Shown here piece by piece: positions 19,668-58,013 of a stretch of 64,000 nt of DNA (position 1 is the first letter of the stretch; each line of letters begins with the position of its first letter). Under the pieces are notes generated by a model, which saw only the letters and a program-made list of their open reading frames with translations, searched no databases and had not been told where the DNA came from. Origin of the DNA: Macrostomum hystrix (taxonomy: Eukaryota > Animalia > Platyhelminthes); assembly GCA_950097015.1 (NCBI GenBank), contig CATNEN010000039.1, positions 11,098,001-11,162,000 on the forward strand, given 5' to 3'. Both the position numbers and the translations under genes were made by a program.

Positions 19668-20493
19668 GTGAGCTTCCTGCAGCTGAACCTGCACCACTGC
19701 ATCGCGGCCTCGACCAACCTGGCGCGTGTGGTGGACTTCAAAAACCCGGGCATCATCCTCCTTTAAGAGCCCTGGACGAAGAAAGGTAAGATTCCGAATA
19801 TTCCTGCAGGTTTTGACTGTTTTTTCATGCCCCAAAACCCCAGGGCTGCTGTGTTCGCGACTACCGATCTCAAAGCTTGGTATAGACCAGACCTCTCTGA
19901 CAAAGACCTCTGTGTCATCCAAACCAACCACATTCTCCCGAACCGCACCGTCATCATCGCCTCTATCTACATTCCTGGTGGCGGTCCTGCAGTTCCGCCC
20001 AGTCTCACTTACCTCGTGGACTACTGCTCAGACCGCGACTTTGAGCTGCTGGTGGCAGGCGACATAAATGCCCACCACACCCACCGGGGCAGTGTTACTT
20101 CAAACTGCAGAGGCGAGGATCTCCTTGCCTACATCTGCACCACCAATATTGAGTTCTGCAACTCGGGTGTCACACCCACCTTTGACAATGGGCGATGGAC
20201 GGAGGTCCTTGACGCCACCCTCGCCTCTCAGGGCCTGATCCCTCTGATCAGGAACTGGCAGGTGTGGGACGAAGAGGAATCTCTGTCTGACCATCGCTTC
20301 ATTCGCTTCCGGTTGCAAAGCTCCTACTCCAAGCCTGGTATTCTGTGGAAAAGGAACGCCCGGAATACTGACTGGACGGTCCTTGCGGAATCCGTGAAGC
20401 GCCAGACCAACCAGTTAGAATCCGTTGTTCCTGCCACCTGTCAAGAAGTGGACGATCTGGCTGATCTACTCAGCACGACCATCTTGACAGCTC
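19668..20493 (+). pseudogene. LINE ORF2, APE endonuclease part
   Basis: VSFLQLNLHHC...ILL*EPW (in-frame stop), ASIYIP, GDINAHH, PTF, LSDHRFI. Confidence 0.88.
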
Positions 20494-22694
20494 CAGGGAC
20501 AACTAAAACCCTCGGGACGCGAAACGAGCCAATTCATGGCAAAGAATCTGAGGGGCTCGAATAAAAGTATTGTTCTATGGCTTTTTCAAGTCTTCTCTGC
20601 TATCAGGCATTAACGGTTAGATTAAATAGTAAAGCGAGGCAATGTCGAGTAATTAATTTAAAGAATAGGAACCATCGATATAATTAAAATGTATTTACAA
20701 TAAAGTAACCGCCATATCAACAAAAAACTCCAACGGCAAGAAGATAAAGGATGAAAGCGAATAATTTCATTCGTCGGAGTCGAGCACTGAGCAGCACTTG
20801 CTCCACAGATACATAGTAGTTGCCGCCGCTCATTTAGCGATACACGCCAAACTCAGCCTCAAGTGGATCACTGTGAAAGTCAGCCAGCAGAACGTAGCTG
20901 ATTCGTGGGTCGGACAAAAGAACCTCACACATCTCACAGGCTCCGCGCAGTGAGTTTACTAGGGCTGACTTGGTCTCGGGCGTCAATGAATGATGGCGAG
21001 CTCGGCCTTTTCCACAATGTGTCGAATCAAACGAATCCGCGAGCGCGCTAAGAAATTGTATGCTTTCATCTTGAACGGAATAGACTGGTCGCCTGTCCGG
21101 ATCCCATGCGTGTGTGTAGATCAGGATTTTTACAATTGACAATTTTCCAGAATCTCACTATGGTTTTGATAAATTCCGCAGTGTCTGAGTATCCATCACA
21201 CTCAATGCAGCGGCAACCCTTTCATCGAGAACTTGGAGAGCGAGACTGACTTTAGTTTTCTGAATGCTTGTGGGATAACAGGCCTCATGAGTTAGACATG
21301 TGCGCTTGACTACGTGGTCTTTCTCCATTTGGTACAGGCGTACCACGTCTGACCATTTAGCGGATATCTGTCTGTCAGCGCCAGAAGGTTGAATGCTTAG
21401 AATTCCATTCGCTTCCATTTGCCAATTGTTGCGAATGCATTTGATAATGTGAACGAAATCGAACAGCCTGAAGAATTCTGACTCCTGTGCAGCATCCGTT
21501 CCAATCCATGGCTTCTCTCTTCCATCGCTAAATAAACCAAAACACTTGCGGTTGGTAGGGTGATTGTCGCTGACGAGAGCAACGACACGGCCACCGTTGT
21601 TGTTAATTGCTTTAATACATTGGCTGACGCATTTTCGCAGAAACTCCGCAGACAAAATGTATGTCGGCAATAGTCGGACTACAAACGGTTTTCCACAAGT
21701 AATGGCTTTACCATTATGGCCAAAATTGTCCTAGCAACCTGGTCCGGATCGTCGACGGCTCAACCCAGAAGGTGACGGCATCGATATCAAACGGACGGTT
21801 GAATGTACATTTCGTTAAACATAATTATGCAGTTTCGCTGAGCTCCTGATAGACTAGCAAAAACTGACTGGATCACATCGGCTGCGTCGGTTTCTGTGCC
21901 AAATTCTCCTGTACCTGCTAGTTGCAGCTGCAGCGTTCGGGGATGAGGCAATGGCAATAATCAAAAACTGAAGCGACGGATCCAAATCAGAGTCAGAAAC
22001 ACCGCGCTTTTCGGCCTGTCAGTCCTGGTCTAAAATAAGAGTAAAAATAAAAGTAAGATAATTGTGAGCGGCAAAATCGATATAGACGCTAAGTGTTGAG
22101 CAATCTTTAAGCTACGTACCTTGGTTCTGAACAAAACACGAGCTAGGAACTCCATTAAAAACAGAAGGAGGATTAATTGGCCTTCCGGTAGAGTTTTTCT
22201 TGACCATTGGAGCATCGCTTGGCCAATGCTTTACGCACATGCCCATGCTGTCAGTCACTCTCTAAAATAATAAATTTTGGGTTTCAAGTTGTTTGGACGA
22301 GACTGGCATGCAGAATTGAAGCGGAATTATGCAGCAGTAATGACAGCAAATGATCTGGTTTCTTACCTGGAGAATATTTGGCAGCGCCTTTCTCTACTGC
22401 TCTCGCTCCTGTGGATCTCTGGGAAACGCAAATATCCGTGTTCGAACGGCTTCAGAGTTGTAATTTGACGAGCACGGAAATACGCTGCACTTTCTTGGCA
22501 TTTCATCAAGTGAAAAATGCTTCTCTTGATATAGTTCAGCTTAGCTTCACTGCTGGCCGCAGCTAAAGCAATTTAAATTTGCTTGATAGCAGAGAAGACT
22601 TGAAAAAGCCATAGAACAATACTTTTAAGCGAGCCCCTCACATTTTTGCCATGAATTGGCTCGTTTCGCGTCCCGAGGGTTTTAGTTGTCCCTG
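20494..22694 (-). mobile_element. P-superfamily (THAP9-like) DNA transposon, degenerate, with ~115-bp TIRs
   Basis: TIRs begin cagggacaactaaaaccctcgggacgcg. Perfect 8-bp TSD gacagctc at 20486-20493 and 22695-22702. Transposase motifs VSDNHPTN, FDFVHIIKCIRNNW and SDPLEAEFGVYR. Confidence 0.88.
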
Positions 22695-22702
22695 GACAGC
22701 TC

Positions 22703-24400
22703 ATGAAACCTCTTGCCCCCTAAAAGCCCACAAAGGCAAAAAATCCGCTCCCTGGTGGAACCCAGCGCTTGGAAACCTCCGGCGCAAGGCCAAATCCCTC
22801 CAGCGGATTGCGCGGAAAAGCAAGGACCCAGCTGACCTGACCGCCTACCAGAATGCGATTCGTGACTTTAAGCGTGACACCAGGAAAGCGAAGTCCGAAA
22901 AGTGGCGCCAATACTGCTCCGAGCTGGAGGGCGCCCGCCCAACTTCTCGTGTTGTAAAAGCGCTCACTCTTGACAAAATGTCGAAGCTCTCAGTGATCAA
23001 AAGACCGGACGGCCGGCTTGCTGAGAATCCTGGCGAATCGCTGGACATCATGCTCGCCAGCGCTTTCCCCGGACCGCGTCGCTTCAGGACCCGCCGGACC
23101 ACACTCCGGGTGGACACATCCTTGCGACCACCATTATCACTAGAGAACGGACAGCTCGCGCTGCTTATTCCTTCTCGCCTTTTAAGTCGCCTGGACCTGA
23201 CAACATTAACCCCGCCTTCGTACATGAAGCGGTGAAAAATGACAGGTTCCTTGGCCTCCTTTGCAACCTGCTCAAGGCCTGTATCACCCTCGGGTACGTA
23301 CCCAGGTCTTGGCAGGAAGCCACTATCGTCTTCATCCCCAAACCTGGGAAGGGAGACTACCACTCCGCCAAAGCCTTCCGCCCCATCAGCTTAACATCTT
23401 TCTTTCTTAAGCTGATTGAAAGGCTTGTTCTTTGGCGCCTCCTTCACGTTGAGCTGAGGAACTCCCCGCTCTCCGCCAACCAGCACACCTTTCGATCCGG
23501 ACGTTTCATCGAAAGTGCTCTGCATGCCATTGTCGACAAGCTGGAGCGCGCCGTGCTTGGCACCGGTTTTGCTCTCTCGCTTTTCCTCGACATTGATGGT
23601 GCTTTCGACAATGTGCTTTTCGGAGCCTATAGGCGAGCCCTGGAGCGCCGGGCTACGCACGAGCACCTCACCCGCTGGATCATGTATATGATCTCTCACC
23701 AAACTGTCACCTCGCACCTGCTTGGCCACTCCCGTTCTGTGAATGTCCAGAAGGGAGGCCCGCAGGGTGGCGTTCTCAGTCCGATCCTATGGATCCTTTG
23801 CTCTGCAGCCCTGACCCGGACTCGGTCCAAAAAATCGGCTATGCTGACGACGTCACAGCCACCGTGGCCGGACCGTCTCCCCCGGTCCTTTGAGACCTTT
23901 TGCAAGCTTTCATCCACCGTGCCGAGCGCTGGGCCCATAGCTGCGGCCTCAAACTCTCTGAGTCCAAGACCGTCGCCATTATGTTCACCAGCAAGCAAAC
24001 GAAACTGGAGGATTGAGCCTCTCCTTCTCTATGACAAACCCATCGCCATGGAGAAGCAAACCAGATGCTTAGGTGTCATCCTCGACCACAGGTTGAGCTG
24101 GACACCTCACGTCAAATTCAAAACTCAGAAAGCTCTTGCGACGCTCGCGCAGATCCGCAGAGCCTTCGGTGCCACCTGGGGCCTCACCCCCCGCCGTCTC
24201 TGGTGGATTTACACTACCATTGTAAGACCGGCCATTTCTTTTGCCGGCTTCATCTGGAATAGTGCCCTGGAGACCAAAGGGGTCTTGGAGGCCCTAAACA
24301 AGGTGCAGTGCCGTGCTTGTCGAGCCATCATGAGTGCGGCACCCTCCCCTCCCTTCGCTGGCATGAATGCATTCCTGGACCTTCCCCCTTTAGATATTTT
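22703..24400 (+). pseudogene. LINE ORF2, reverse transcriptase part (frameshifted)
   Basis: APWWN, FRPISLTS, FLDIDGAFD, PQGGVLSP, GYADD in a shifted frame, LGVILD. Confidence 0.9.
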
Positions 24401-24650
24401 TATAATAATCTACTAGCTTTTTTTGCCGTTGTTTTTGGGGCAGAAATTTAAAGCAAAGCAGTAAGCAATTCACGTCTCTGTATTAACTTTATAGTGAAGG
24501 TCACCATTTATTTATTTACTGCATTAATGAAAAGTGAAGAGTTTGTTTAAGGGCGTTTTAAGTAAAAAATAAGTGAAAAGTTTGTCCAAAGTTTGCCCCC
24601 TCTTGATTACTTCTTTAGAAACATGTCTCTTAGCCACTCCTCTATACAGT

Positions 24651-25074: not shown

Positions 25075-25690
25075 TCACCTCAAGGCCTGGGGATACACCA
25101 CATTCTTCGTTCTTCCCCTTGGTGCGAAAATGAATAGGCCAGCTGGAGTTCCAACACGGGAGCAGGCGACATAAAGCTGCCCATGCGAGAAGCAAGGAGT
25201 CTCCAGGTTGATGCCAGCCACCTTCAGCGACTGTCCCTGAGCCTTGTTAATAGTCATCGCAAAGCACACTCTCACAGGGAACTGCAGTCGCTTGAACTGA
25301 AATGGCAGGTCCGTGGGGATAATTGGAATCCGGGGAACGAACACAGACTCTCCTCTGCCAGATCCAGTCATTATCGTGGCCTCAATCACGTGTGGGAAGA
25401 GCCGCCTGACTATCAGTCTGGTGCCGTTACACAGCCTTGGCGCATTCAGGTTGCGGAGGAGCATAATTGGTGCCCCAACTTTCAGCTGCAAGTTGTGCGA
25501 TGGAGTTCCAGGAGGATCTAGAGAGTTCAGAAACTCAACAGGATACTCCACAGCGGTGTCATCAGTCAACGTTGTATCAATTGACTTGTAGGTGAAAACT
25601 GCACCTGGCAACTCCTGAAGCAGTTGGTAGTTAATTTCGTTGGCGGCATCATTTCTAGGACACAGAATTGCCTTCTCTGACAGCCAGTCA
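25075..25690 (-). pseudogene. Helitron RepHel C-terminal PIF1-like helicase fragment
   Basis: AILCPRN, LKVGAPIMLLRNL, LCNGTRL, FAMTINKAQGQSL, FSHGQLYVACSRV, TKNVVY. Confidence 0.92.
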
Positions 25691-26392
25691 ACGCCAGCCT
25701 CTCTCTTTCTTCTATCCCAGGCTGGCTGGAGAGAAATATCGACCGGAGAGCCCTGCGCACTGGGACGCCACCGCACTCACCGCACTCAGTCTCAGTGCTG
25801 CTTGGGGGCCAGTAGACAGTCTAGGGGTTTGGGCTGTGTACATTCACGGCTTGAAATACAATGTACAGTCTGGGGCTTCGGCGCTCGGGGAAGGGAGGGG
25901 GTGGCTGTAATAAAATTTGGCCCGCAGAGTGGCGGAGGGGAGTTGGGGTGGCTGTCCTCGGAAAACAAAAAGTGACTCACTTTGAGATGATGCAGCTTTG
26001 CTCTGGATTGAGTAGAGATGTTCAAAATTGACAGCATTGTTGGAAAACATGTAAAGTGTAAGTGGATCAAATTTGGAGAAAATCTGACAAAGTGGGGCGA
26101 CGATATGTCGAATTGAGTGATTTTTTGACGATTTTTGAGCAGTTTTTTGCACTTTTGAGCAGGAAGGAAATGATTTTTCGGGAATTTGAGTAGCCTATTG
26201 CACTCAGCGTAGGTGGTTTTAGGTATGTGCAAAGTTTGGTGCGATTTGGTTGAGCGGTTTCGGCGTCTATAAAGACAAAAGGTTGCACACACACACACAG
26301 ACACACACACAGACAGAGTTTTCACTTTTATATATATAGATTATAAAAAAAAAAATAAAAATAAAATAAAAAAAATAAATTAATATTTCTTA

Positions 26393-29740: not shown

Positions 29741-30341
29741 AGTGTTGTGCGTCAGGCACTTTTTTCATTCCACTTAGTTTCAGCCGCCCACCATAGTGTT
29801 CCATTTGTTGATGTGTGCCCTTGTTCTCATCCTCAGTCGAAAACGCTGTCTCTGTTCCATCCCACCGGGCATTTGTTTTGCGGACCCCTCTTGCGATTGT
29901 CGCGAAAACGTGAGTTATTATTAACCAATCCTGTTCTCTGTACACCCTTGTGGTAATCTATTTTCTTACCCCTGTTATCTGCCAGCTCCGCCCTTCTCTA
30001 TCTATTATCGATTTTGTCGCTGTCCCTTTCCGCTAACCCCCCTCCAGTCTAGCGTCTGCCCCCACCTTGTTTTGCTCTCCCTCTGCACGCGTTATCTATC
30101 GTCTGTTAACCCCCCCAATGTACATTCACCCCAGGGTTTTCATACCCTCATTTGTCTCTCCTCGCTGTCGACCCCCTTTCTGTCCTAGCATATCAAAATT
30201 TATATTATACCGTTTCAGGCCCGAGGTAGAGTGGAGTGCTGTCTGCTGGTGCATCGGCGCAAATTATTGCAATTTGACTCATAACTCTAACATAGCGAAA
30301 GTTCAAATTAAATCAATTTATTTACATCGATTTAATGAGTA

Positions 30342-30453
30342 AATAAACAGCGGCCCCAGTGCGTGACAACGACTGTTTTGCGAGCGCCTACCGCCTAGCG
30401 CCTACCGGCGCTCGCAAAACAATCGTTGTCACGCACCGGGGCCGCTGTTTATT
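30342..30453. repeat. 47-bp near-perfect inverted repeat (hairpin) upstream of the Crypton-like ORF
   Basis: aataaacagcggcccc...gcgagcgcc / 18-nt loop / ggcgctcgc...ggggccgctgtttatt. Mirror copy at 63597-63708. Confidence 0.85.
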
Positions 30454-30570
30454 GATTGAGGCAAGCAGGGGAGAAGAGCACATGAAGAGAAATATTAACA
30501 AACCTGGAAGCTTAGACATGGATGCTAGAAGTGTCCATCTTCTAAATTTTAATAATCTTCCTGTCGATAG

Positions 30571-31285
30571 TGTTGTGTCTTGGCCTAATGGCCGACGGAG
30601 GGAGATGGGGGTTGGGTCCACCTGCCCGAGAAACCCAGGTCCCAGACCAACCCTGCCTACGCCTAACAGACCTGATTGGTTCAGCGAGAGTTCACTGAGC
30701 CAACCGCCCTGAGACTAGCGAGAGTTCACTCGTCTCAGGTCCCTAACGGAGCGAGAGTTCACTCAGTACGCCCCACCGGCCCGACGCGGTAATCCCCGGA
30801 ATGAGGAAGACACGAGCTCACCTTGAACGTCTCCACGCAAGCTGATCGGCTCTACTCGTTTATTGCCGGCACTTGAATAACAACTATGATTGGTAGATAG
30901 GCAATGCACAGACTTGCAGAAGGGCAGGTAGGAAGTCGAGGCGGACGGGGTTACAGATAGGGCGGGGCGACTACTTATATAACTTACTATACAGGGCAGA
31001 GAAGAGGGAGAGAGAGAAAAATTAGACACAAAGCCTGGGTCACTGGCGGCTTATCCGGCCGCCAGCCAATGCGAGTGGCCCAGGTGGGGGGAGGGGTAGA
31101 GAGAGGCGGGGCTAGCGCAACGCTGGGGCATGGGCAGGTGGGCGCAGAGAAGAAAAAAAGGGGGGCTAGGCCGGGGTTGAGGCGTAAGCCTCTTACAAAC
31201 CCTGACCTAGGCTGGCACGGGTGTAGGAAGGGGTGGGGCAGACAAACAACGCAGAGGGCACAAAGTGCATTTGCACGGCACAACA
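30571..31285 (-). repeat. 3' LTR, preceded on the minus strand by the PPT ggagggggagga (31286-31297)
   Basis: Direct repeat of 38440-39154 with TG...CA ends. Confidence 0.95.
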
Positions 31286-31508
31286 TCCTCCCCCTCCAAG
31301 AAAAAGAAGAGTAGAAGGGGATACAAAAGCATCGCATGCGAAAAAAAACAACACAGAAAGAAAAATAAAAGGCTCACTACCCGAACGATATAAAAATAGG
31401 GTTTGGACCATAGACTACGAAGCACCTAAACCAGCATGAAAAACAATAGGACAAATTAACCAAGCTAAATAAATTGTCAGCAACAAAGTTACGCAAGAGC
31501 ACGCAAAA

Positions 31509-33227
31509 TTAGTCAAAGAGTCGCCCGAAAAATCGGCTCGCGTTTGTAGCAAAAAGTCGAGTCCAATACTCACGCCCGCAATCACTGTCAGCTAGAGCAT
31601 CTGGCACCAAATTTACGGCGGTCGGGTCCTTGGGGTCTCCACCGAACGGTGAGGCAGATGTCACTAGAAGACGATGTCGCGGAAGTCGCCTAGCCCGTTG
31701 CACTGCTCGCGGGGATCCTCGGCACCGGACTGATGCCTCGAAGAATACACCGTGGCACACGTCCACGAGCACAGTCTCGACGGCTGCCGGCATGTCCAGG
31801 TCCTCAGCCAGCATGATGTACATAGCGTGGAACTCGGGCTGCTGGAGGAATCCTAGGGCGACCGCCCAGGCAGGTTCACCACCGATAACTCGGAACAGGA
31901 CCGGTAGACCGAACTCCTTGGCTAGGAGAAACTGCTCCATTGCTGCCGTCAGCTGATCTTGACGTTGCGAGCCCGCGACGTCCCAATTGAGCTCGACTTC
32001 GCCGACAGCAACGGCACGCGGCCAGCCACCCGTTAGAAATTGTCGCAACTCGTCTCGCAGCGACGGCCACCATGTTGCAGAACTCCCGTTCAGGCCCAGG
32101 GCGAACACGATCCGACTATCTTGCAGCAATGGTTGCACCACGGGACAATCCCGACGTAGGCAGTAAGGTGAGTTCACAATCGCCAAGCATCGACGCACAC
32201 CACGAAGATATTCGGGTTGAATTGGTCGGCCCAGTCTAGTTAGGTACGCCTTGGCATCGACCAGACGTTCCGCAGAGCCGACACCGTGCTGACCGGGGCT
32301 GCTGTCGCGACGCAGCTCCTGGCTGCCAACGACATCGCTGCTGCGACCGACCTCCTGGCTCGCGACGGCTGTTCCCTGCTGTGCAGAGTTTTCGCTGATT
32401 GACGTTGCGGTCGACGACGAATCGCGCAGTCTTGCTGTCGGGGCCTGAGAAAGGTGCGGCCCGTGACCTCGCCCTCCCGGGGACCGCGCAGGGCCGGGAC
32501 CCACTAAGAGAGACAGGGACCGGAGCTTCCTAAGCAAGGGACCCCCCAACTCACGCAACTCAAAGCAACGCACCGCTAGCACAACACACTCAAACGCTGC
32601 CTGCAACACCGAAGGCGGAATCCGCCGACACCTCCCCGACCCAACACCGCGACCACGCTTCCTCCCATACTGATTACACAAAAACGAAGCAGAGACGGCT
32701 AAAAGCCTGGAAAATTGCACCGGCACACTCACACCAATCCCTTCAAGAAACTTTGCCCCCTCGCGCACGACTAGGCAAGCTCCATCACTGTCGCCAACCC
32801 TAAAGCAAGACAAAAGCGCACCTCTCAGCCGCCTACACTCAACAACTGCAGCTGGAGTGGACAACTCGGTTGGGATCTCCACGTGAATTGGAACTTCCTC
32901 AGCGTCATCTTTAAGGCTGGTCAGAGCTAACTTGACATGCTCCGGCAAAGCAACATCCGGTGGAGGATTGAAAAAGTAGGCGTACTTTAACACCCCTTGG
33001 CACGCAGCTTCTCCAACCCGATTGTACACTTCTCGGAACACTGGATCAGTCAAGACACAAAATGCCATCACGTCTCGCTGAGACTCCGGAGACTCTGTCT
33101 CGGCCGATACGACGACGGGCCGTTGAGAGTACATTCGACTACACACTGCCTCAATTTCTGCAGAACTAGCCGTCCGACCCACGCCTATAATGCCATACAA
33201 GTCAGTCGGTGTCTCCTGCGATGACAT
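31509..33227 (-). CDS. Extra Gypsy ORF: DnaJ-like N-terminal domain (no HPD), linker and TatD-like DNase fold (likely inactive)
   Basis: DLYGIIGVGRTASSAEI...AFCVLTDPVFREVYNRVG resembles a J domain. LVDAKAYL, AVGEVELNW, QFLLAKEFGLPVLF, LPRHRLLVTSASPF and TNASRFF follow the TatD motif order. Confidence 0.8.
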   Translation of the reverse strand: MSSQETPTDLYGIIGVGRTASSAEIEAVCSRMYSQRPVVVSAETESPESQRDVMAFCVLTDPVFREVYNRVGEAACQGVLKYAYFFNPPPDVALPEHVKLALTSLKDDAEEVPIHVEIPTELSTPAAVVECRRLRGALLSCFRVGDSDGACLVVREGAKFLEGIGVSVPVQFSRLLAVSASFLCNQYGRKRGRGVGSGRCRRIPPSVLQAAFECVVLAVRCFELRELGGPLLRKLRSLSLLVGPGPARSPGGRGHGPHLSQAPTARLRDSSSTATSISENSAQQGTAVASQEVGRSSDVVGSQELRRDSSPGQHGVGSAERLVDAKAYLTRLGRPIQPEYLRGVRRCLAIVNSPYCLRRDCPVVQPLLQDSRIVFALGLNGSSATWWPSLRDELRQFLTGGWPRAVAVGEVELNWDVAGSQRQDQLTAAMEQFLLAKEFGLPVLFRVIGGEPAWAVALGFLQQPEFHAMYIMLAEDLDMPAAVETVLVDVCHGVFFEASVRCRGSPRAVQRARRLPRHRLLVTSASPFGGDPKDPTAVNLVPDALADSDCGREYWTRLFATNASRFFGRLFD

Positions 33228-33472
33228 GTTGACCCTGCAATTTGTTTTTTTGACGTTAAAAGATTCAATTTACTACCGGTGTCTACCCGATCACCAAAAG
33301 CCATCCCGGATTGCCCGCCCCTAATGCTGAACAATGAAATGTAATGGAATACCGTACGAACGATGACGCAACCTGTCAATGTTATTTTTTTCTTTTATTT
33401 TTTAGTGCATTTTATGAATTTTTTTGTTCTTTTTTTATCTTCTTTTGTGTGGTGTATGTGGGTTTTTTTCGT

Positions 33473-34800
33473 TTAATACAGTATTGGATTACCATATCGT
33501 ATTGGCCGATGACCTCTTTGGGGTCGCAAGCGGCGCGGTGACACTGGAGGTGCGTCGACGGCAGGCGAGTGACGCACAGGTGCCGGTCCCTGGTTACGGT
33601 TTATTAGAGGTACAAAGACGAACTCGTCCGGGTCCCCATCTTCAAAATCGGGCTCCGACTCCTGAGGGGTTCTCTCAGCACCCTCACTCCGCCTCTTTTG
33701 CGCGTTAGACTTCCGTTTCACTTTTCGTAAGCTTTGCAGTCCTGGAGGTCGCTCCGGAACTTTGCGAAGGTTGTTGTAATGCACAGTTTTTGTCTTTTTC
33801 TTATTTTCCAAACGAATTCTGAAATTAACGTCAGAAATTTTTTCAACGACTTTGGCCGGTCCCTTCCAATAGTTGTGGAACTTTGCAGCTTCATTCGGCT
33901 GCAGGGCAGGTGAGTATTCGAGTACGGTATCACCTACTTCAATTGACGGGCCTCTGACTCTAGAATCGTACATAATCTTTTGCTTTCTCTGATATTGCTG
34001 CAGATTTTCCCTTATTCGGAGTGCGCTTCGGCTAGCCTACTCCCTAGGAGCTGCAGGTACTCAGTCACCCGGCATTGACTCTGGTAAATTGCCTATATCA
34101 ACCGGCAGACGCATTTCTTTTGCATAGAGCATGTAGTACGGGGTGTACCCCGTGCCACGATGTACACTACTACGATAGGCAAGAAGTGATGGCGCGATTA
34201 ACTCCTCCCAATCACCCTGAGCTTCGCTTTGACGGCATTTGATCATATACTTTAGAGTTTTGTTAAAACTCTCCGCCTGACCATCGGCCATGGGATGGTA
34301 GGATGTTGTTCGGCATTTCTTTACCGACATCAACTGACACAACTGTTTCACCAACAAAGACTCGAAATTAGTGCCCTTGTCTGTTACAAGAAACTCTGGG
34401 CACCCAAATTGCGCAATCCAGTGATCGAAAATAGCTTTTGCTACAGTGTGCGCCCGCTGATTGGGTAGGGGAACCGCCACAGGCCATTTCGTGAACGAAT
34501 CCTGGATCGTTAGCACGAATCTAGACCCGTTCCGTGATCGGGGCAATGGTCCCACAATGTCAGACATGATTCTCTGGAACGGAGCTTCAGAAACAATTGG
34601 CTTCAAAGGAGCTCGATTGGCCTGTCTTGGCTTAGCTCTAGCACAGTGGATGCAGCTCTTACAGTATTCTTCCACTCTACGCGATAGCCCGGGCCACCAG
34701 AACCTACCTTTTCCTGGGTTTTCTTTACGCCTAGGTGACCTCCTGCTACTCCATCATGCAACTCCCTGGAACACTTTAGAAAATAACGTTGGAGGTAAGA
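33473..34800 (-). pseudogene. Gypsy integrase (zinc finger, DD35E core, GPY/F region), split by frameshifts
   Basis: GGHLG...CKSCIHC, MSDIVGP, TDKGTNF, YHPMADGQAES and WKGPAKV are spread over several frames. Confidence 0.88.
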
Positions 34801-37800
34801 CAATTTTTTTACTCCTCGGTTTCCCGGGCTTCGAAAGTACAGCAACTGAGATTCTTCATGCAGCAGTTGACGATGAGCCCAAAGACCTCGCTCTTCAGTC
34901 GACATCACTACTGGCGGTTGTCCAAATCCCTCAGGATCACTAATGAATGCCTTTACACTGGACAGCTTACTTTCTGCTTCCTGAGCTTGCTGAATTTCCT
35001 TCTTGTCAAGGCTACTACCTAGCACGACGTTTACCACAGGACTGTTAGGCTCGAAAGAGCAGCTAGGACAGCTCTCATGCCCAGAGTGCTTGCGGTATTT
35101 CCTGGATAACGAATCTGCGTTCGAATGGTCTCGGCCAGGTCGATGGATAATTTCGAACTCGTAGTTCTGAAGGGACTCCAACCACCTAGCACACTGTCCC
35201 TCCACATCTCTCAGACTAGTCAGCCATTGCAACGCTTTGTGGTCGCACCTGATAATAAATTTGCGGCCTAAAAGATAATAACGGTATTTCTTCACAAAGT
35301 GCACGATCGCTAGCAGCTCGAGACGGGTAGTGCAGTAATTCTGCTCCGCAGAAGTTATACTTCGTGACCCGTAAGCGATCACCTTCTCCTTTCCATCAAC
35401 CTGTCTTTGAGACAGCACAGCACCAAGGCCTACTCTGGAACTCGCATCCGTGTCCAAAATGAACTCACCGGCCGTAGGGGCGAAGTCCGGAAATGCCATC
35501 ACCTGGAGTGAGCAAAGCGCTGCCTTCAGCTTACAAAATGCACCCTCTTCGTCACCTCCCCATCTAAACTCTGTACCTGCGGCAGTCAAGAGATACAACG
35601 GAGCTGCGATCACAGAGAAGTTTTGAATGAATGTTTGGTAATACGCACAGACGCCGAGAAATGTTTGAACCTTTTTTACACTGCATGGCCTCGGCCAGTT
35701 TTGAATTTCCATGCACTTGTCCGAGTCTGTACCTATCCCACGGGCCGAGATCCTGTGACCTAGAAACTTAATTTCGCTGGCCAGGAAAACACATTTGCTA
35801 GGTTTCAACTTAACATTTGCGGCGCGCAGATGCTGGAATACATGCTCCAGACGCTCGAGGTGTTGTTCCACACTCCTAGCGAAAACGACAATGTCATCGA
35901 AGTAGACCAGACATTCCTTCCAATTTAGGTCTGATAAGGCCATCGACATTAACCGAGTAAATGTCGCTGGTGCATTTCGGAGACCAAAGCTCATGCACTT
36001 CCAAGCGAACTGGCCTCTGTTCGGCACGATAAAAGCAGATTTTAGCTGATCTTTCACCGCTAATGGACACTGATGATATCCGGACGCCAAATCCATCGTC
36101 GAAAAGATGTTGTTGCCTCCCAATGCAACCATTGTCTCATCCATTCTAGGTGGTGGATATGGGTCCGGAACTGTTACCTTATTTAGTCGCCTGTAATCAA
36201 GACACAAACGCAAGCTGCCATCCGGCTTTTTTACCGGAACAATGGGGCTAGCCCAAGGCGAATAGCACGGATAAATTCGATCGGCAGTCAATAACTCATC
36301 TACCTGCTTGTCTACCTCGCCCTTCCAATGAGGCGGAAGCCTCCTAGGAGCCAGATGGATCGGCTTGGCATCACCTGTATCGATTTCGTGCGACAAAAGA
36401 TGACTACATCCTAATTCGGAGTTGTCTTTTGTGAAAGCATCGCGATTCCGAGAGATCAGCTCGATGAACTGGTTCTTTTCACTCTCAGCAAGCCCACATT
36501 TGCCCCACTCCTTGACATCATCCAACGGACTCCAATCCCCGTCTGCTGCGATTGCAGCGTTGACTTGCAATCCGGCTGGTTGTTGGGCTGCGATAGGCGA
36601 GAACCATCCTACTCTCGTTCCTTTTCTCAGGGAGAGATGACAGTCTGAAGTGTTAAGAATTCTCACTGGCATGAATCCTTCATCTCCAGGCTTCTGAACC
36701 GATCTAGCAACCAGGCGCTCATGACTGAATCGCTTTTCAGACTCTACCATTCCTAGAAACTGGACTCCAGCGACTCCGTACCGCTGAACCCTGACCTGGA
36801 CAATCCTTTCTTGCCCTGCACTAAACTGCTCGGATCTACTCAGAATCAGACGGCACAGCCGCGGCTTTTCCGCTGTCAGACGGAACGGATAAACATACGC
36901 GCCTGCCTGCAAGCAAGTTCGAGCAAAATCGATTGACATGCCGTTCTTTAAGAAAAAATCTACACCCAGAATGCACTCAGCAGACAGGTGATCAACAATA
37001 GCAAACTCTTGCTCAAACTCAGTTTCACCAACCTGGAAAGTTAACTTCGCTGTCCCACACACAGGAATGGCCTCACCATTAGCAGCAAAGATTGACCATT
37101 GATTCGGATTCTGGACGACTTGAATTTTCAACTTGTTTTGATTCACAACTTTACGATTAAGAATTGACACGGTAGCACCACTATCCAACAGACACGCTAA
37201 CGAGGGCCCAGAGCCAAACTTGGCATCAAGATAGCCTAACCCAGTTCTACTCAGCACACTCTGGGTCAAGGCTGGAGCCCTCGGAGCACTCGGACTCAAT
37301 GGCGCGGGGGCCCGGGACGCTGACCCAACCGGGCCCCGCTCCCATTTTCCCTGATTACCGCGATTCCAACGCTGATAGCAGCCGTTCCGCAAATGGCCCG
37401 GCTGACCACACTCAAGACAGACGACTGGATTTCTGCACTGGGACGCCACATGTCCCATCTGCAGGCATCGACCACAAGACCTTGGCTGGTGGGGCACCGC
37501 AGATCCCCCCTGCTGAAGGCCCTTCGACTGCTGGACCACTTTTGGCTGTACCATCGGCTTCGAGTTCGCCACGGAAGCTGTACTAGCCTTCAGCTGTGCT
37601 ATTTCGGCTTTTAAAGCTGCAATCTCAGCTACCTCCTCGCTCCGTTGAGCTACGGGCTGGCTCTCTATCATGTGGACTCCTCGACTAGACCCTCCTCTGT
37701 CTTCCAGTAACTTCATGTAGGCCATGGTTTGGCGAACTCTCTGGAATGCCTCTTGCAGAGTCTCTGGGTTGTGCATTAGCACACCCTCTAGCACTCGAGT

Positions 37801-38277
37801 CGGTACTTTAATACCTTTTAAGAAACGATCCTTAGCCAGTTCATCCCGCTGGGCTGCTGTTAAGTTAGGATAAGCTTTTCTCATGAGCTCCCTAAGCGAG
37901 TCAGCGAAGTCTTCAATCGCCTCTCCCTCTTTCTGGTTTCGGCCTTGAAATTCTAATTTGTAGTCTTGAGCAGTCCTATTCTGACAGAAACGAGCCTCTA
38001 ATCGCTCGATAAACTCCTCATACGTTAAGTCGTCATCCAGCTCCATGTTCGCTACGGCCTTAAATGCAGTCCCAAAGTCAAGAAGGCTTATCAAAGTCTG
38101 TCGACGCTGATCCTGCGCAATCTGCGCTGCATCACAGTATACTGTGAACTGTTGCAACCACAGAGTGAAATCCTGCGATGTTACGTACTTATTTGGCCGT
38201 GGTACGCGTTGAGCTACATTTAACTGATTTTGAATGCGCACTGTCAGGGCGTCGATTAGATCATCCAAATTAGCCAT
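34603..38277 (-). CDS. Gypsy gag-pol polyprotein (gag with 2 CCHC knuckles, protease, RT, RNase H); goes out of frame near 34800
   Basis: CGRCLQMGHVASQC, CLECGQPGHLRNGC, LLDSGA, YFDDIVV, LDTDAS, CDHKAL. Likely start MANLDD at 38277. Confidence 0.93.
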   Translation of the reverse strand: MANLDDLIDALTVRIQNQLNVAQRVPRPNKYVTSQDFTLWLQQFTVYCDAAQIAQDQRRQTLISLLDFGTAFKAVANMELDDDLTYEEFIERLEARFCQNRTAQDYKLEFQGRNQKEGEAIEDFADSLRELMRKAYPNLTAAQRDELAKDRFLKGIKVPTRVLEGVLMHNPETLQEAFQRVRQTMAYMKLLEDRGGSSRGVHMIESQPVAQRSEEVAEIAALKAEIAQLKASTASVANSKPMVQPKVVQQSKGLQQGGSAVPHQPRSCGRCLQMGHVASQCRNPVVCLECGQPGHLRNGCYQRWNRGNQGKWERGPVGSASRAPAPLSPSAPRAPALTQSVLSRTGLGYLDAKFGSGPSLACLLDSGATVSILNRKVVNQNKLKIQVVQNPNQWSIFAANGEAIPVCGTAKLTFQVGETEFEQEFAIVDHLSAECILGVDFFLKNGMSIDFARTCLQAGAYVYPFRLTAEKPRLCRLILSRSEQFSAGQERIVQVRVQRYGVAGVQFLGMVESEKRFSHERLVARSVQKPGDEGFMPVRILNTSDCHLSLRKGTRVGWFSPIAAQQPAGLQVNAAIAADGDWSPLDDVKEWGKCGLAESEKNQFIELISRNRDAFTKDNSELGCSHLLSHEIDTGDAKPIHLAPRRLPPHWKGEVDKQVDELLTADRIYPCYSPWASPIVPVKKPDGSLRLCLDYRRLNKVTVPDPYPPPRMDETMVALGGNNIFSTMDLASGYHQCPLAVKDQLKSAFIVPNRGQFAWKCMSFGLRNAPATFTRLMSMALSDLNWKECLVYFDDIVVFARSVEQHLERLEHVFQHLRAANVKLKPSKCVFLASEIKFLGHRISARGIGTDSDKCMEIQNWPRPCSVKKVQTFLGVCAYYQTFIQNFSVIAAPLYLLTAAGTEFRWGGDEEGAFCKLKAALCSLQVMAFPDFAPTAGEFILDTDASSRVGLGAVLSQRQVDGKEKVIAYGSRSITSAEQNYCTTRLELLAIVHFVKKYRYYLLGRKFIIRCDHKALQWLTSLRDVEGQCARWLESLQNYEFEIIHRPGRDHSNADSLSRKYRKHSGHESCPSCSFEPNSPVVNVVLGSSLDKKEIQQAQEAESKLSSVKAFISDPEGFGQPPVVMSTEERGLWAHRQLLHEESQLLYFRSPGNRGVKKLSYLQRYFLKCSRELHDGVAGGHLGVKKTQEKVGSGGPGYRVEWKNTVRAASTVLELSQDRPIELL

Positions 38278-38418
38278 GGCTACAAAAGCAAACACAATGC
38301 TCCAGCACAGCGACACGGACACCGAGACAGACAAAATACACTGAGACCACAGACTAATTACCTACCGAGCCAATCCACGCCCCCACAAACACATACGCTA
38401 GGACACGGGAAGACTGGA

Positions 38419-38436
38419 ATCCTGGTCACGGCACCA
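38419..38436 (-). promoter_or_regulatory. Primer binding site complementary to tRNA-His
   Basis: TGGTGCCGTGACCAGGAT lies 3 nt inside the 5' LTR boundary and matches the tRNA-His 3' end pattern. Confidence 0.85.
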
Positions 38437-38439
38437 CTT

Positions 38440-39154
38440 TGTTGTGTCTTGGCCTAATGGCCGACGGAGGGAGATGGGGGTTGGGTCCACCTGCCCGAGA
38501 AACCCAGGTCCCAGACCAACCCTGCCTACGCCTAACAGACCTGATTGGTTCAGCGAGAGTTCACTGAGCCAACCGCCCTGAGACTAGCGAGAGTTCACTC
38601 GTCTCAGGTCCCTAACGGAGCGAGAGTTCACTCAGTACGCCCCACCGGCCCGAGGCGGTAATCCCCGGAATGAGGAAGACACGAGCTCACCTTGAACGTC
38701 TCCACGCAAGCTGATCGGCTCTACTCGTTTATTGCCGGCACTTGAATAACAACTATGATTGGTAGATAGGCAATGCACAGACTTGCAGAAGGGCAGGTAG
38801 GAAGTCGAGGCTGACGGGGTTACAGATAGGGCGGGGCGACTACTTATATAACTTACTATACAGGGCAGAGAAGAGGGAGAGAGAGAAAAATTAGACACAA
38901 AGCCTGGGTCACTGGCGGCTTATCCGGCCGCCAGCCAATGCGAGTGGCCCAGGTGGGGGGAGGGGTAGAGAGAGGCGGGGCTAGCGCAACGCTGGGGCAT
39001 GGGCAGGTGGGCGCAGAGAAGAAAAAAAGGGGGGCTAGGCCGGGGTTGAGGCGTAAGCCTCTTACAAACCCTGACCTAGGCTGGCACGGGTGTAGGAAGG
39101 GGTGGGGCAGACAAACAACGCAGAGGGCACAAAGTGCATTTGCACGGCACAACA
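38440..39154 (-). repeat. 5' LTR
   Basis: Direct repeat of 30571-31285, followed by the TSD atag. Confidence 0.95.
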
Positions 39155-39158
39155 ATAG

Positions 39159-40728
39159 CTTAAATGCTTTGTCCCAGTCCGAGTTGGATCTCGTGGCCGA
39201 ACTGTCGCGCAACGACTGCCGTCGTGACGAGCTAGTGACCCAGTTCTTGTTGTTTTGTGAGAACTCCATCGGCGACAAAGCGAACTCATCTGATCTGCCT
39301 GCTGATATTCGTGAAAAACTTACCAGCATCGATGAAGCTGAGATGGAAAGTCTACCTCAAAGCAGTCGGAAACTGATGGAGAATCATGGGCGCAAGTTTG
39401 TCGAATTTCTGAATTCATGGTCGCGGTCTGAACTCCGATTTGGATATTTGAATATCATTGTGAAGAGACAGAAAAATCTGGTTGCTACTGGGACCGTGTT
39501 TGATGGCTGAAACAGGATGCTCGAATTCAAGGTCCGTGAATTTATCAAGTCTGGCAAGACAGTTCAAAGCTACGATCCAATCGAGGAGGGAGACATGGTT
39601 AAATTGCGCGACTACTTTGATCGTAGTGACGGAGAACGACTCCAAGATGAATTGCTATTCAATCTCATGTATCAGCTTGGAGAGCGTGGACGGGAGCACA
39701 TGAAGACGTTTCTGAATCGGAACTTTCTGGTGCGAGGTGTCGACTCGGATGGACGGCAGTATGCCTGTTTGCCGACGCTACCATCGAAGAATCGATTAGC
39801 AACACTGGGCGCTGGTCAGGTCACCGATTGGAAGCACGCTAGAATATATGATCTTGAGCTGCTAGAACTGTACGAGTCGGTGATTCCGGATTCCGGCGAC
39901 CACTTTCTACCTCGTCCTATGGAGAGCACCATAAGGAAGAAGTTTATCTTCTCTGATAAGACACACCGTGGTCTGCGTTATTTACAAGAGTTCATGAAGA
40001 ACCTATGAATAAGCAATTATGAGTGTGAGACTCACATCTCAAAGCTTCAGTGCAGGAGCATATCTACGAAGCAGTGTATTTTATATTCAAGCGATAAGGC
40101 ACAGTGTTTAGCAGTAGGGGGGTCAGAGAGAGAGATATAACAGATAACACACAAGCAGTTATCTCTCTGCCCCGCGTTGCCATGGTCCCCAACCCAACAC
40201 ACCAGCCGCGAGAATTCTAGGCACGAGTTCGCAGGCTGATAGGGTGCATAGGTTCTCGGTCTCTGCGTCATTGCTTTCCAGGCCGTCAGGTCAGCCGGTC
40301 TGGCTCGCTCAGGTCTATTTTGAGCGCTGGGTGGGTCGAAATGCAGATGAAGGTCGCTGATTGAAAGGAGCACCGATGTAAGCGCTTTTCAAACGCTTAC
40401 AAAAAGTAAAAGCATAATTGTTTGTTCAGCTTTCTGAACAAGACACCATTGCATCTTTAGAGTCACGCGCATTTGCGACTTGGAAAGCGAAGGGCATGCT
40501 GTCCACGACATCATGCTTGTGACGGGTCCCAAGTCGGAGGCGACCGTTCGGCGATATCTGCATAAGAGGCGTGATCGCAGTTTGTACAAGTCCTCTGTGA
40601 ACGTGCATACCGCCATGAAGAAGTATTTGGATTGTATGGATCGTACTGAGGCTGCGCCGTCCATTAGTGGAGATGAGGAGTTTCATCGGGTCCAAGGCCC
40701 ACCAGAAAAAAAATCCGAATCCAAGTGA
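39159..40728 (+). pseudogene. Crypton-like (DUF3504/KCTD1-type) tyrosine recombinase remnant; its first codons lie at 30518-30570, before the Gypsy insertion
   Basis: PIEEGDMVKLRDYF...LQDELLFNLMYQLGERGRE...DSDGRQY and IMLVTGPKSEATVRRY. Removing the Gypsy restores the reading LPVDSLNALSQ. Confidence 0.75.
40005..40429. mobile_element. Small TIR element inserted in the Crypton-like ORF
   Basis: Ends tgaataagcaattatg / cataattgtttgttca with a possible 2-bp CT duplication. Removal restores KNLSEQ. Confidence 0.55.
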
Positions 40729-40892
40729 ACGGCAGTTCGAACATCATTGATTTATTTTTTGAATAGCTTTAATGACTGCATTGACTGAAAGTTAACTTTT
40801 GTTGGTGTTCATTTGAGGCATTCATCACATAGGTTTCGTCTATGTTCGTTATTCGTCTAGGTTCAATGCCGAATGGCAAACAAACAATGAAT

Positions 40893-43800
40893 TGTAACGC
40901 ATAAAAACTACAAACAATGATCGTCAAATTGCAATACAATCGAAAGGATCGCGCGCAGAATAAAACATGAGTGGAGCCCCCTCTCCTAGCAATTTGTGCA
41001 TATCACTTTAAGACGATCTGAAACCTCAACGAGTGGTCTTCAATACATAACAATGGTGTCGCAACGTCTTAGAGAACTATCGCTCGAGGAACCCGAGCGC
41101 GCCCAAACGTGGCTAATGGCTTTTCGGGAACTGGCTCGTGTGAAGGAGTGGTCCGACGTCGAGGACAAGAAACGTGTCGCGGACAACTTCCTGGCAACCT
41201 GCGGACTCCGCACGCTGGAGAAACTGCAGGACCTCGTTTCGCCCCGGTGCATTGACGAGTTAACGTTTGCTCAAATTGAGGCAGCCATCATCGGCTACTT
41301 GCGCCCAAAGGAAAAACTCACCATCGCCGAACGCACTCGATTCTTCAACGTTCGCCAAGCGGCGGACGAATCCATCTATAACTTCGTTGGCAGGCCCCGG
41401 CACGCCGTCACCGATTGTAAGTTCGATTCTCTCCGCAGCTGCGAGAGCCCATCGGAGGAAATGATACGGATGGCACTCATCGCTGGCCTGCGAAACCCAC
41501 GCGAACAGCAAAGGGTTCTGGAGGCCATGCAGGCCAAGGATCTACCAATCCCCGAGATAATTGATTTGGTTCGCAACATGGAGCAGGCGACAGCGTTCGT
41601 CACCAAATCGACGGGGGTTGCCGCCGGCACCATGGTCGGTTTGGGTGTGCCGCAGACCATGGCAATCCATTCTGACGAGGCCACGTTGCACTACACGAAG
41701 CCGCGGTCGTCGGAGCACCAGCGTGTGTCGCGCCGGCGTCGCCCCCTCGAGGTCTGTACACCATGCCGGCGTCCCTGAGGGTGCCACCGCTGTGCAGGCC
41801 CCGGAAGCTTTACTTTATCTCTCCGATTCCGCATCCATCCACACCATTTACACGGTCACGGAGCCCGTCTTCGTGCTCGACAAGAAACTTCTGATGCAAG
41901 TCGACACTGGGGCAGCCGTGTCCGTGCTGTCGAGTGTTCAGTGGGACGCCTTGGGCGCCCCCAATTGCTGAGATGCTCCAAGCGGTTGGAGGCCTTTGAC
42001 GGCCACGTCATGCAGACACTGGGCAAACTGTCGACGACCGTGGAGCTACGCGGGTGCATCCATCCAGCGGAGCTGACCTTCGTCGCCTCTAACAAGTCCT
42101 ACGGATTACTAGGTCGAGACCTCCTCAGCTCGGATGGCCTCTTCCATACGACTCCGTGTGCGGTGGGCAATCCCATTGCTGTGGATCCGCTACCGGCGAT
42201 CAAAAGCGTTAAGGCTCAAATGGAGCTGGTGGATGGGGCAAGGAACCAGTTCTGCCGCGCTCGACCCGTTGGAGAAGCAAATCAACGCGGAGCTCGATCG
42301 TCTATATCAGCTCGGTGTCATCGAGCCAATTGAGGGACCCGTCAACAACGCGTCACTCGTCGTTTGGGTAAAGAAGAAGGATTGCACGCTGCGGATGTGC
42401 GCTGACTATAGCGTGCACGTGAACGCCAAAATCAAATCGGACTCTTACTTGATTCCCAACGTGGAAAGCATCTTCGCTCGCTTGAAGAACGCATCGAAAT
42501 TCGCCACCGTCGACCTGCGCTCTGCCTACTGGCAAATTGAGCTCGATGATGCCGCAAAGGATCTTTCCGTCATAAACACTTCACGCGGGCTGTTCCGCGT
42601 GAATCGGTTGCAAATGGGGATGAAGAACGCCTTATTTATATTCCAGCGGACTATGGAAGCAATGCTCGGCGACATCAAGGGACTCTTGATTTACCAAGAC
42701 GACATTCTCGTATTTGCGCCCGATCAGGCCACCCTGGAGAAGCGTCTGGGCGCTGTGCGAAAGCGCCTCGCCGAAAAGCATGTTACGATCAACGAGTCTA
42801 AATGCATGTCATTGCGACTCAGTTTCCTTTTTCGGTTTCCGCATCTCGGCTGCCGGCATCCAGCCGGACGATCGCCTGGTAGACAAGATTCGGCATGTCT
42901 GCGCACCCACCAACAAAACAGAATTGGCCAGCTTTCTGGGCCTGATTAACTTTTTTGGACGCCTCATCCCCAATTTCGCTGGGAAGACAGTGCCTCTCAA
43001 TTGACTACGGAAGGCCGACGTTCCGTTTGAATGGTCTGACAAATGTTCTGCTGCTTTCGACAACATGAAGCGCGAGCTCGCGCTCACACCAATCGTGTAA
43101 CCGAACAGTCTGACAAAAGAATTGACTTTGACCACGGACGCATCGAAAGGTGCCCTCGCCGCCGTAGCTATGCAGGACGGCCACCCCGTCATCTACGTGT
43201 CTCGCACTCTCTCACTTGCCGAATCCAGCTATTCCAACATAGAGCGGGTAGCCCTTGCAATATTCTGGGGCGTCATACGTCTAAGGCATTTTCTTCATTG
43301 CAGGCGATTCACGATCCAAACAGATCACCAGCCTCTGCTGCGGCTATTTGGATCCGGCATCCCACTAAACACGTCAGTTGGAATCGGCCACTGGGTCAAA
43401 TCTCTGATGCAGTTCGACTTCGACATGCGATACATCCCCGGATCCGCCATCCCCCACGTAGATGCACTGCGCCGTCTGCGCTTCGACAACGCGACGACCG
43501 ACACCGAAGACATCTTCGAGGCCATAATCGCAGTTGCGTTCGAAACACCCCAGATCGCCGCCAGGAGGGTTGCCTCCGAGATGGAACTCGATGGTTTCAC
43601 TCGGAAAATCATTACTCGTGTTCGCTCCGGCAATTGCAAGCAGTGCACCCAGGCTGAGTTGCCCTTCATGAACTTTGCCGAGAAGTTAACGCTCGAAAAT
43701 GGTTTTCCTTTCATGCACCGCCGGGTTTACATCCCAACCCGCCTACGCCGGGCTGCTTTCAACGCGATTCACGACACGCACTCTGGCGTACATGCCTCGT

Positions 43801-43905
43801 ACAATCTGTTATCCGCATCCTGCTGGTGGCCGGGAATACAGCAAGATGTCGATCATTTTGTCCGTCGCTTTCGACAACATGAAGCGCGAGCTCGCGCTCA
43901 CACCA
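40893..43905 (+). mobile_element. Second, decayed and 3'-truncated Gypsy (Mag-like): putative short LTR, gag, PR, RT, RNase H and integrase start
   Basis: VDTGAAVS, LRMCADYS, YQDDIL, TTDAS, IQTDHQPL, IHDTHSG..WWPG, with stops and frameshifts. The TG..CA segment 40893-41052 followed by aTGG is a tentative LTR/PBS. Confidence 0.85.
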
Positions 43906-43924
43906 AGAGCACCGAGCTCTGTTC

Positions 43925-44583
43925 TGAGGGGACATTGGTTCTCTGCTTCTGAGGGAATATCGGTTCTCTGCTGTTTGGGGGACATTGATTATTTGCTGTT
44001 TGGGGGACACTGGTTCTTTACTGCCGGGGGGACATTAGTTATTTGCTGCCGGAGGATGGCATTGGTTATTTGCTGCCGGGGGATGGCATTGGTTATTTGC
44101 TGCCGGGGGATGGCATAGGTTATTTACTGCCGGGGGATGGCATTGGTTATTTGCTGCCGGGGGATGGCATTGGTTATTTACTGCCGGGGGATGGCATAGG
44201 TTATTTACTGCCGGGGGATGGCATTGGTTATTTACTGCCGGGGGATGGCATTGGTTATTTGCTGCCGGGGGATGGCATTGGTTATTTGCTGCCGGGGGAT
44301 GGCATAGGTTATTTACTGCCGAGGGATGGCATTGGTTATTTGCTGCCGGGGGATGGCATTGGTTATTTGCTGCCGGGGGATGGCATTCAGACTAACTATT
44401 TATAAATTCAGTGAGAATTATAATTCTTGTTGAATCGCAATCACGTATATTCGCAATCAGGGAAAATCATACTGACGAAATGAGTTTTTGATTCTTTTAC
44501 TTTCAGGTGTGTTTTGTTCTTCTGCAATACACAAGATTTTTTGTCTGAACAGTAGTGCCCCCAAGGGGGGCTAAGTGTGCTAG
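43925..44583 (+). mobile_element. 3' end of a Helitron-like element with a 27-bp minisatellite (ggggatggcattggttatttgctgccg)
   Basis: Hairpin gccccc-aa-ggggggc followed by taagtgtgCTAG|T. Tandem array at ~44030-44387. Confidence 0.7.
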
Positions 44584-45767: not shown

Positions 45768-45810
45768 TATATATACACTGGCTATTTCTACCGTTCTACT
45801 CAGCTCAGTA
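45768..45810 (+). promoter_or_regulatory. Putative TATA box and initiator for the spliced GPCR
   Basis: tatatata followed ~30-38 nt later by tcagct/tcagt, then a CAG|GTAAGT donor at 45839 and a TTTGCAG| acceptor at 45948. Confidence 0.4.
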
Positions 45811-57994: not shown

Positions 57995-58013
57995 GAACAG
58001 AGCTCGGTGCTCT

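Follow-up and report, generated by a model that had tools for sequence, protein, structure and literature searches.

Few extra genes apart from env exist in long terminal repeat (LTR) retrotransposons, and they are not well understood; the ones that have been described mostly keep their catalytic residues. Among them are the Juno and Vesta elements of bdelloid rotifers, which carry a non-env third open reading frame, ORF3, coding for a DEDDy exonuclease or a GDSL esterase (Rodriguez, Kenefick & Arkhipova 2017, PMC5408684). Here we analyze a gene of a Ty3/gypsy-type LTR retrotransposon that lies in a 64,000-nucleotide stretch of Macrostomum hystrix DNA (contig CATNEN010000039.1, positions 11,098,001 to 11,162,000), referred to as the window; all coordinates below are those of the window. 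The gene encodes a 572-amino-acid protein in which a J-like domain is joined to a TatD-like TIM barrel, and we class it as a probable accessory gene of the ORF3 kind, here with the chemistry of both folds lost. The rotifer genes and the window ORF are alike in that a third ORF of cellular hydrolase origin follows pol in an animal LTR retrotransposon and lacks the transmembrane or coiled-coil features of an env gene; an auxiliary role in replication has been suggested for the rotifer genes and is unproven (PMC5408684). A GDSL derivative in Athena-L is described in the same paper as also lacking catalytic residues, like the ORF in the window. The folds are different, however, and the catalytic residues of Juno and Vesta ORF3 are intact, whereas nearly all are lost from the window ORF and their loss is conserved. 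The words TatD and DnaJ do not occur in PMC5408684.

The second point of comparison is Macrostomum lignano, whose LTR elements include the Ty3/Mdg4 clades Mag and CsRN1 as well as Gmr1/Osvaldo (PMC12801592). They belong to the same superfamily as the element described here, and the closest protein relatives of the window ORF are M. lignano entries. Neither this ORF nor DnaJ, J domain, Hsp40 or TatD appears in the main text of PMC12801592, although its supplementary tables may list the gene without naming it. A full-text literature search returned no description of a TatD or J-domain gene in an LTR retrotransposon, and nothing on TatD in combination with pseudoenzymes; the only link between TatD and retroelements in PMC5408686 is a TATDN2 retrocopy, and neither TatD nor DnaJ occurs in the text of PMC6338049.

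The TatD-like and J-like domains

The extra ORF (31509-33227, minus strand) is the sole long frame at the locus. A search of 1.84 billion representative proteins recovered only four family members, described below, and two true bacterial TatD proteins (E values of 5.4e-6 and 1.6e-4). With the whole protein as query, a homologous-protein search gave no match and the ESM Atlas no usable one. In the viral fold library BFVD, one match had an E value of 0.001 or less, and it is a Yasminevirus protein that is uncharacterised. We divide the protein into a J-like domain (residues 8-79, 32991-33206), a conserved helical region to which no family was assigned (residues 80-171, 32715-32990), a variable linker rich in Arg, Ser and Gly (residues 172-317, 32277-32714) and a C-terminal TatD-fold TIM barrel (residues 318-572, 31512-32276), all on the minus strand.

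Several comparisons identify the C-terminal domain. The Pfam family TatD_DNase (PF01026) matches it at an E value of 0.0032 and 17.3 bits, under the gathering cut-off of 27 (20.2 bits for the M. lignano relative P0001), and when a profile built from family members only was run against the PDB, 11 of 12 matches were TatD-type chains (best E value, 1.3e-4). An AlphaFold2 model of the barrel, built on an alignment that included 119 bacterial TatD rows, has a predicted local distance difference test (pLDDT) value of 87.6 and a predicted template modelling score of 0.87. The original prediction had called for a structural alignment with TatD and YcfH, and the match was found: a Foldseek search with this model returned TatD-type chains at 14 of the 16 top places, including TatD, YcfH, YjjV and TATDN1/3, with E values down to 2.9e-9 and template modelling scores of 0.69-0.77. 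Because the TatD rows in the alignment could have biased the fold, a second search was made with a model from five family rows and no TatD sequence. TatD-type chains again came first, at VIA-align Z values of 17.2-14.8 (214-221 residues aligned, root mean square deviation 3.1-3.5), ahead of other amidohydrolases at Z values of at most 13.6; one of the structural matches was 4pe8, TatD with a trinucleotide DNA. By these models, the domain is a TIM barrel of the TatD type.

The fold is retained, but the residues that define the enzymes are not. Like the TatD nucleases (PF01026; TatD, YcfH and YjjV of E. coli, and human TATDN1 and TATDN3), the window protein keeps the glutamate of the GE motif, E410, which is also present in P0001 and in the more distant relative P0003. 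It further keeps 20 of 52 highly conserved columns, defined as those at least 90% conserved in the 119 bacterial TatD rows; these rows are all closely related to a single bacterial protein, and "conserved" refers to that sample. In contrast to those enzymes, it has none of the conserved histidines and no ETD aspartate, is fused to a J-like domain, is carried by a transposon and scores below the Pfam cut-off. All six histidine columns are replaced (K326, Y328, N380, S382, R446 and E475): DxHxH reads D324-A-K326-A-Y328, HPH reads N380-G-S382, LPVxxH reads LPVLFR446, and E475 stands for the histidine of the fourth motif. ETDxP is represented by T523-S524, a 6-residue gap and then ASP, with the aspartate deleted. 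The metal ligands expected of a TatD enzyme, namely the histidines of motifs 1, 3 and 4 and the ETD aspartate, are thus absent. These readings were taken from alignment A8, since the full-length MAFFT alignments (A6 and A7) misplaced the first TatD motif; a search with alignment A4, whose query contained a TatD row, served alignment building only and is not counted as evidence for homology. The motifs DAKAY, LPVLFR and TSASP had been picked out by the original prediction, with the GE glutamate as the only survivor, and they stand, the gap lying inside the last of them.

At the other end of the protein, phmmer against the PDB placed DnaJ, Hsp40 or Sis1 at all 16 top chains (best E value, 1.3e-3; residues 8-73). 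A two-row profile of the window protein and an M. lignano relative reached 5.1e-6, with 26 of 30 matches named DnaJ, Hsp40 or Sis1. Pfam DnaJ (PF00226) is silent on the window protein even at E values up to 1 and gives 16.8 bits on P0001, against a cut-off of 27.8. The column of the His-Pro-Asp (HPD) motif aligns to R36-P37-V38, inside the MYSQRP stretch where the loss of HPD had been predicted; the equivalents are RPR in M. lignano and RRV in organism C, whose copy of the ORF is described below. In J domains, a basic face of helix II contacts Hsp70, as known from the DnaJ-DnaK literature. In the window protein, helix II (ASSAEIEAVCSRMYSQ) has one Arg and two Glu and shows no such face, and residues 1-79 contain no Lys and carry a net charge of -5. 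J-domain patterns with a degenerate HPD motif occur elsewhere, as in DNAJB13 (chain 8j07_U, the best PDB match of the two-row profile, which reads HPL) and in Pam16/Tim16, a J-like protein without HPD. Unlike these, the window ORF has neither the His nor the Asp, and the Pro too is missing from organism C; the window ORF also differs in its non-basic helix II and in its location in a transposon. Both domains thus lack the residues that define their families, in keeping with the pseudoenzyme reading given to them originally.

The remainder of the protein is less informative. The J-like part has pLDDT values of 40-62 in the structural model and is unusable there, and the full-length AlphaFold2 model from five family rows reaches a pLDDT of 49.6, with the N-terminal parts and the linker not interpretable (linker below 50). 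The region at residues 80-171 is helical in this low-confidence model and aligns with P0001. For residues 1-172, the ESM Atlas gave sub-threshold leads (score 0.83) to clusters of ARM-repeat and DnaJ proteins, and a profile search with the N-terminal part recovered P0004 as the only family match among nine candidates. The stretch RKRGRG, which had been proposed as a nuclear localization signal, is present at residues 188-193 within the linker; as a conserved signal it is not supported, because linker residues ~172-280 are absent from the M. lignano relatives.

The linker is labile in length: a 62-nucleotide stretch (32323-32386) is exchanged for 26 other nucleotides in sequencing runs X2 and X9. 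In X2, one divergent copy of low depth additionally skips 352 nucleotides (32449-32802), and the sum of its length changes is not divisible by three.

Conservation of the substitutions and selection on the ORF

The nearest relatives are the M. lignano proteins P0001, P0002 and P0004, named J domain-containing protein or ribonuclease H in UniRef; the two longer entries are probably chimeric gene models. They are ~73% identical to the window protein over residues 1-171 and ~84% over the barrel, and they read YSKRPR, DAKAY, LPVLFR and TSAAP at the motifs in question. The fourth relative, P0003, is encoded on a 1208-nucleotide contig and is 51% identical over the last 165 residues. Its motif readings are LPALLR and LASGAV, and within its coverage, which begins at residue 405, it has the arginine at R446, the glutamate at E475 and no ETD aspartate. 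The fourth motif reads AEDLD, AEDLD and SEDLH in the family members. The original prediction had proposed that the substitutions be checked across copies and would have been given up had relatives kept the catalytic residues; they do not. Since the same states are found in the M. lignano proteins (~75% identity) and in P0003, the window copy is not merely decayed, and the substitutions are fixed as far as relatives for comparison exist.

A contig from organism C (run X9) spans 31508-33387 at ~91% nucleotide identity to the window, and the comparison covers 60 of ~160 differences. The only length change in its ORF is the replacement in the linker (-36 nucleotides), which is in frame. Over codons 445-562, 27 of 40 listed differences fall at third positions and 23 codons changed synonymously versus 12 non-synonymously, with a ratio of non-synonymous to synonymous rates (dN/dS) of 0.16. 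The codons for R446, T523, S524 and A525, that is, sites at which the family-defining residues were replaced, show synonymous changes only. The sampled part of the TatD-like barrel is under purifying selection, and its altered residues are a selected state as well as a fixed one. The HPD loop behaves differently: its codons 28-37 show seven non-synonymous changes and no synonymous one, and a second sample of organism C has a compensated +1/-1 pair in the same loop. Synonymous divergence itself is 0.07-0.10 in codons 1-116 versus 0.36 in codons 445-562, and this roughly fivefold difference suggests that the two halves of the gene have separate histories, through recombination or module exchange.

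The host element and the predicted expression of the ORF

The element occupies 30571-39154 on the minus strand, looks complete and has the features of a Ty3/gypsy-type retrotransposon: paired LTRs with TG...CA ends, a target-site duplication, a putative primer-binding site and a polypurine tract, and the order gag-protease-reverse transcriptase-ribonuclease H-integrase. Read in the direction of the element, the 5' LTR (38440-39154, 715 bp) has an AATAAA at LTR position 422 and a candidate 5' splice site, and is followed by TGGTGCCGTGACCAGG at 38420-38439, whose position suggests the primer-binding-site region. A 1243-amino-acid frame (34603-38334) encodes gag, protease, reverse transcriptase, ribonuclease H and the beginning of the integrase zinc-binding domain; the integrase core and C-terminal domain (rve and Integrase_p58_C) follow in one frame at 33473-34675. 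An A-rich spacer (33228-33472), with a candidate 3' splice site inside it, separates the integrase stop from the start of the extra ORF. Beyond the ORF, the polypurine tract, read directly as GGAGGGGGAGGA on the element strand (31286-31300), adjoins the 3' LTR (30571-31285, 715 bp), which was found by its self-match with 38440-39154. All of these lie on the minus strand. The target-site duplication ATAG is present on both sides (30567-30570, where the flank ends in CGATAG ahead of the LTR start TGTTG, and 39155-39158, after the 5' LTR). The third ORF therefore fills the space between integrase and polypurine tract, which is the position of env in retroviruses. Its guanine-plus-cytosine content at third positions is 0.57, compared with 0.50 for pol and 0.79 for the window's one host gene.

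The LTRs are 99.72% identical, with two mismatches in 715 bp (30785 and 30943), and by this near-identity the element is young. Integrase is frameshifted, as had been noted, with one frame change in the zinc-binding domain near 34700; in addition, the stretch from the core to the C-terminal domain is interrupted by two in-frame stops. The contrast between an intact ORF and a broken integrase, which the original prediction had offered as evidence, is a weak argument, because with LTRs this alike a 1.7-kb frame is expected to be open through youth alone.

We infer the expression and splicing of the ORF from sequence signals. A candidate donor, CAAG|GTGAGC, lies in the 5' LTR 37 nucleotides past the AATAAA (exon end at 38691), and a candidate acceptor, TTGCAG|G (AG at 33235-33236), lies 7 nucleotides ahead of the ATG of the ORF. 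In the M. lignano entry P0004, LTR-like sequence (its match is 39080-38895) extends as far as the AATAAA region; ~13 codons come next and lead to the start of the ORF. This spacing fits a splice from the donor in the 5' LTR to the acceptor before the ATG. The gene would thus be expressed from a spliced subgenomic mRNA.

The 5' LTR is also where an inverted duplication of 11 kb begins, with arms of 99.6% identity (38440-49430 and 52490-63479). The mirrored arm carries only a solo LTR (62765-63479) where the element is inserted in the other arm; the ATAG is identical, and the flanks of both arms agree, 30050-30570 matching 63480-64000. Either the element was lost from that arm by recombination between its LTRs, or the assembly placed two haplotypes head to head.

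Possible functions of the protein

Our best reading is that the protein is a lineage-specific, non-catalytic accessory protein. Binding rather than catalysis is likely, because the working residues are gone in the relatives as well and the TatD-like half is nevertheless under selection. In a fuller form, to which we give about an even chance, the ORF is taken as the third gene, in the position of env, of a young element of the Ty3/gypsy type and acts as a binding or adaptor protein for that element. TatD enzymes hold the 3' ends of nucleic acids. The working part would then be a metal-free TatD barrel, which by analogy would hold a ligand at that place, the likeliest candidates being single-stranded nucleic acid and a host protein. 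As for the J-like domain, it would be a fast-evolving helical module unable to drive Hsp70. A transposon that keeps, under selection, two cellular folds devoid of their chemistry bears the mark of a protein that binds or regulates, possibly one directed at host factors.

A number of observations weigh against this reading. Four acids near the former metal site (D324, E410, E475 and D476) are conserved, and a rewired metal site is therefore conceivable. The J-like part shows no purifying selection versus organism C (4 synonymous and 11 non-synonymous differences; dN/dS, 0.91), and the reading frame of organism C was read in part. With its integrase broken, this copy of the element cannot be autonomous, and the expression of the ORF is a prediction. 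Among the three models from M. lignano, LTR-like sequence stands beside the ORF in P0004 alone; P0001 and P0002 place the ORF in unrelated sequence. Furthermore, word depth is higher over ORF contigs (31491-33414) than over integrase contigs (33385-34100), at 28.3 versus 4.08 in run X1 and 125.9 versus 24.1 in run X2, and the contigs break at 31491 and 33414; contig word depth cannot rank genes, but the ORF could also occur outside this element or in more copies than pol. An X2 contig does join the N-terminal part of the ORF to integrase without differences, and X2 may be the window's own source.

Alternatively, the ORF could be cargo, that is, a multi-copy host or domesticated gene of macrostomids that was captured by the element lineage and on which selection serves the host. 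The two M. lignano models without retroelement context, the depth over the ORF and the fivefold difference in synonymous divergence, which points to a mosaic history, speak for such an origin. Nevertheless, we consider it unlikely, because the ORF sits exactly between integrase and polypurine tract in an element whose ends are intact, the M. lignano model P0004 connects the start of the ORF to LTR-like sequence, third-position composition is like that of pol and unlike that of the one host gene available, and no cellular J-plus-TatD protein with intact motifs was found among the 1.84 billion representatives. The conserved acids raise the different possibility that the barrel is a rewired enzyme, still a hydrolase by way of a carboxylate metal site or a metal-free mechanism. 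Some enzymes of the amidohydrolase fold do work without metal, E410 is kept, Glu-Asp replaces the fourth-motif histidine in all family members, and purifying selection on the barrel is strong. On the other hand, the histidine is gone from all six conserved columns, the ETD aspartate has been deleted together with its loop, and K326 and R446 at former ligand positions are what is usually seen in a site that is filled and free of metal, so that continued hydrolysis seems to us quite unlikely. That the ORF is a decaying relic, a once-active J-TatD cargo now drifting and open only because the insertion is young, is scarcely credible. The near-identical LTRs have left little time for stops to accumulate, integrase is already broken, the J-like part evolves at a dN/dS of about 0.9, and the divergent X2 copy has length changes that are not multiples of three; yet a drifting gene would not be expected to combine a barrel dN/dS of 0.16, purely synonymous change at the substituted sites, an in-frame length change as the only one in organism C and the same residue states at 51% identity.

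Two further explanations concern the targets of the protein. As originally proposed, it could be a decoy, with a J-like domain that binds Hsp70 or a J-protein but does not activate its target, and a dead TatD domain that competes with or blocks a host nuclease attacking the complementary DNA (cDNA) of the element. Both folds are kept while catalytic and activating residues are lost, and the concentration of non-synonymous changes at the HPD loop, where 7 of 10 codons are affected, is how an arms-race interface could look. Moreover, some LTR elements of M. lignano are coupled to the heat-shock response by way of elements that their LTRs contain (PMC12801592). Against this, no heat-shock elements were found in the window, whose LTRs, unlike those of some M. 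lignano elements, lack a canonical one. Antagonism of Hsp70 or J-proteins is made less likely by the loss of the basic face of helix II, through which Hsp70 would be contacted, and by the lack of purifying selection on the J-like part; with just 15 changes in that domain, their clustering may equally reflect relaxed constraint. We therefore regard a decoy as decidedly improbable. The same clustering enters a scenario that we put forward with considerable doubt, in which the protein is an arms-race effector: the barrel would hold the 3' ends of element cDNA or block a host TatD nuclease, the HPD loop would diversify to grip a protein of the chaperone system, and the gene would spread as a swappable module between element lineages. 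Spread of this kind would account for the fivefold synonymous difference between the two halves.

Whichever role the accessory protein has, the relatives in M. lignano make it accessible to experiment. RNA interference works in this species. An LTR promoter reporter has been shown to function in vivo there (PMC12801592), and with transgenesis the role of the homologous gene is directly testable in a regenerating animal. Such work would offer an uncommon experimental route to the function that non-env accessory genes have for retroelements.

Other features of the window

By its content, the window is animal-like DNA. The single host gene mentioned above is an intronless ORF for a rhodopsin-family receptor (7tm_1, E value of 4e-51) at 5121-6482, with the third-position value of 0.79. 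Also present are a mariner-type transposase (12130-13152), non-LTR endonuclease and reverse transcriptase fragments (19827-24416) and a Pif1 helicase fragment from the 2B domain (25075-25776). A second, degenerate element of the Ty3/gypsy type lies within the inverted duplication (40996-43952, mirrored at 57967-60923), with reverse transcriptase, ribonuclease H and the integrase zinc-binding domain in separate frames. Long tandem-repeat arrays are found at 6959-9070, at 48600-49998 and 52487-53319, and at 11311-11935, 2820-3539, 14417-14858 and 43919-44387; judged by self-match offsets, their periods are about 53, 22, 36, 20, 23 and 27 nucleotides.

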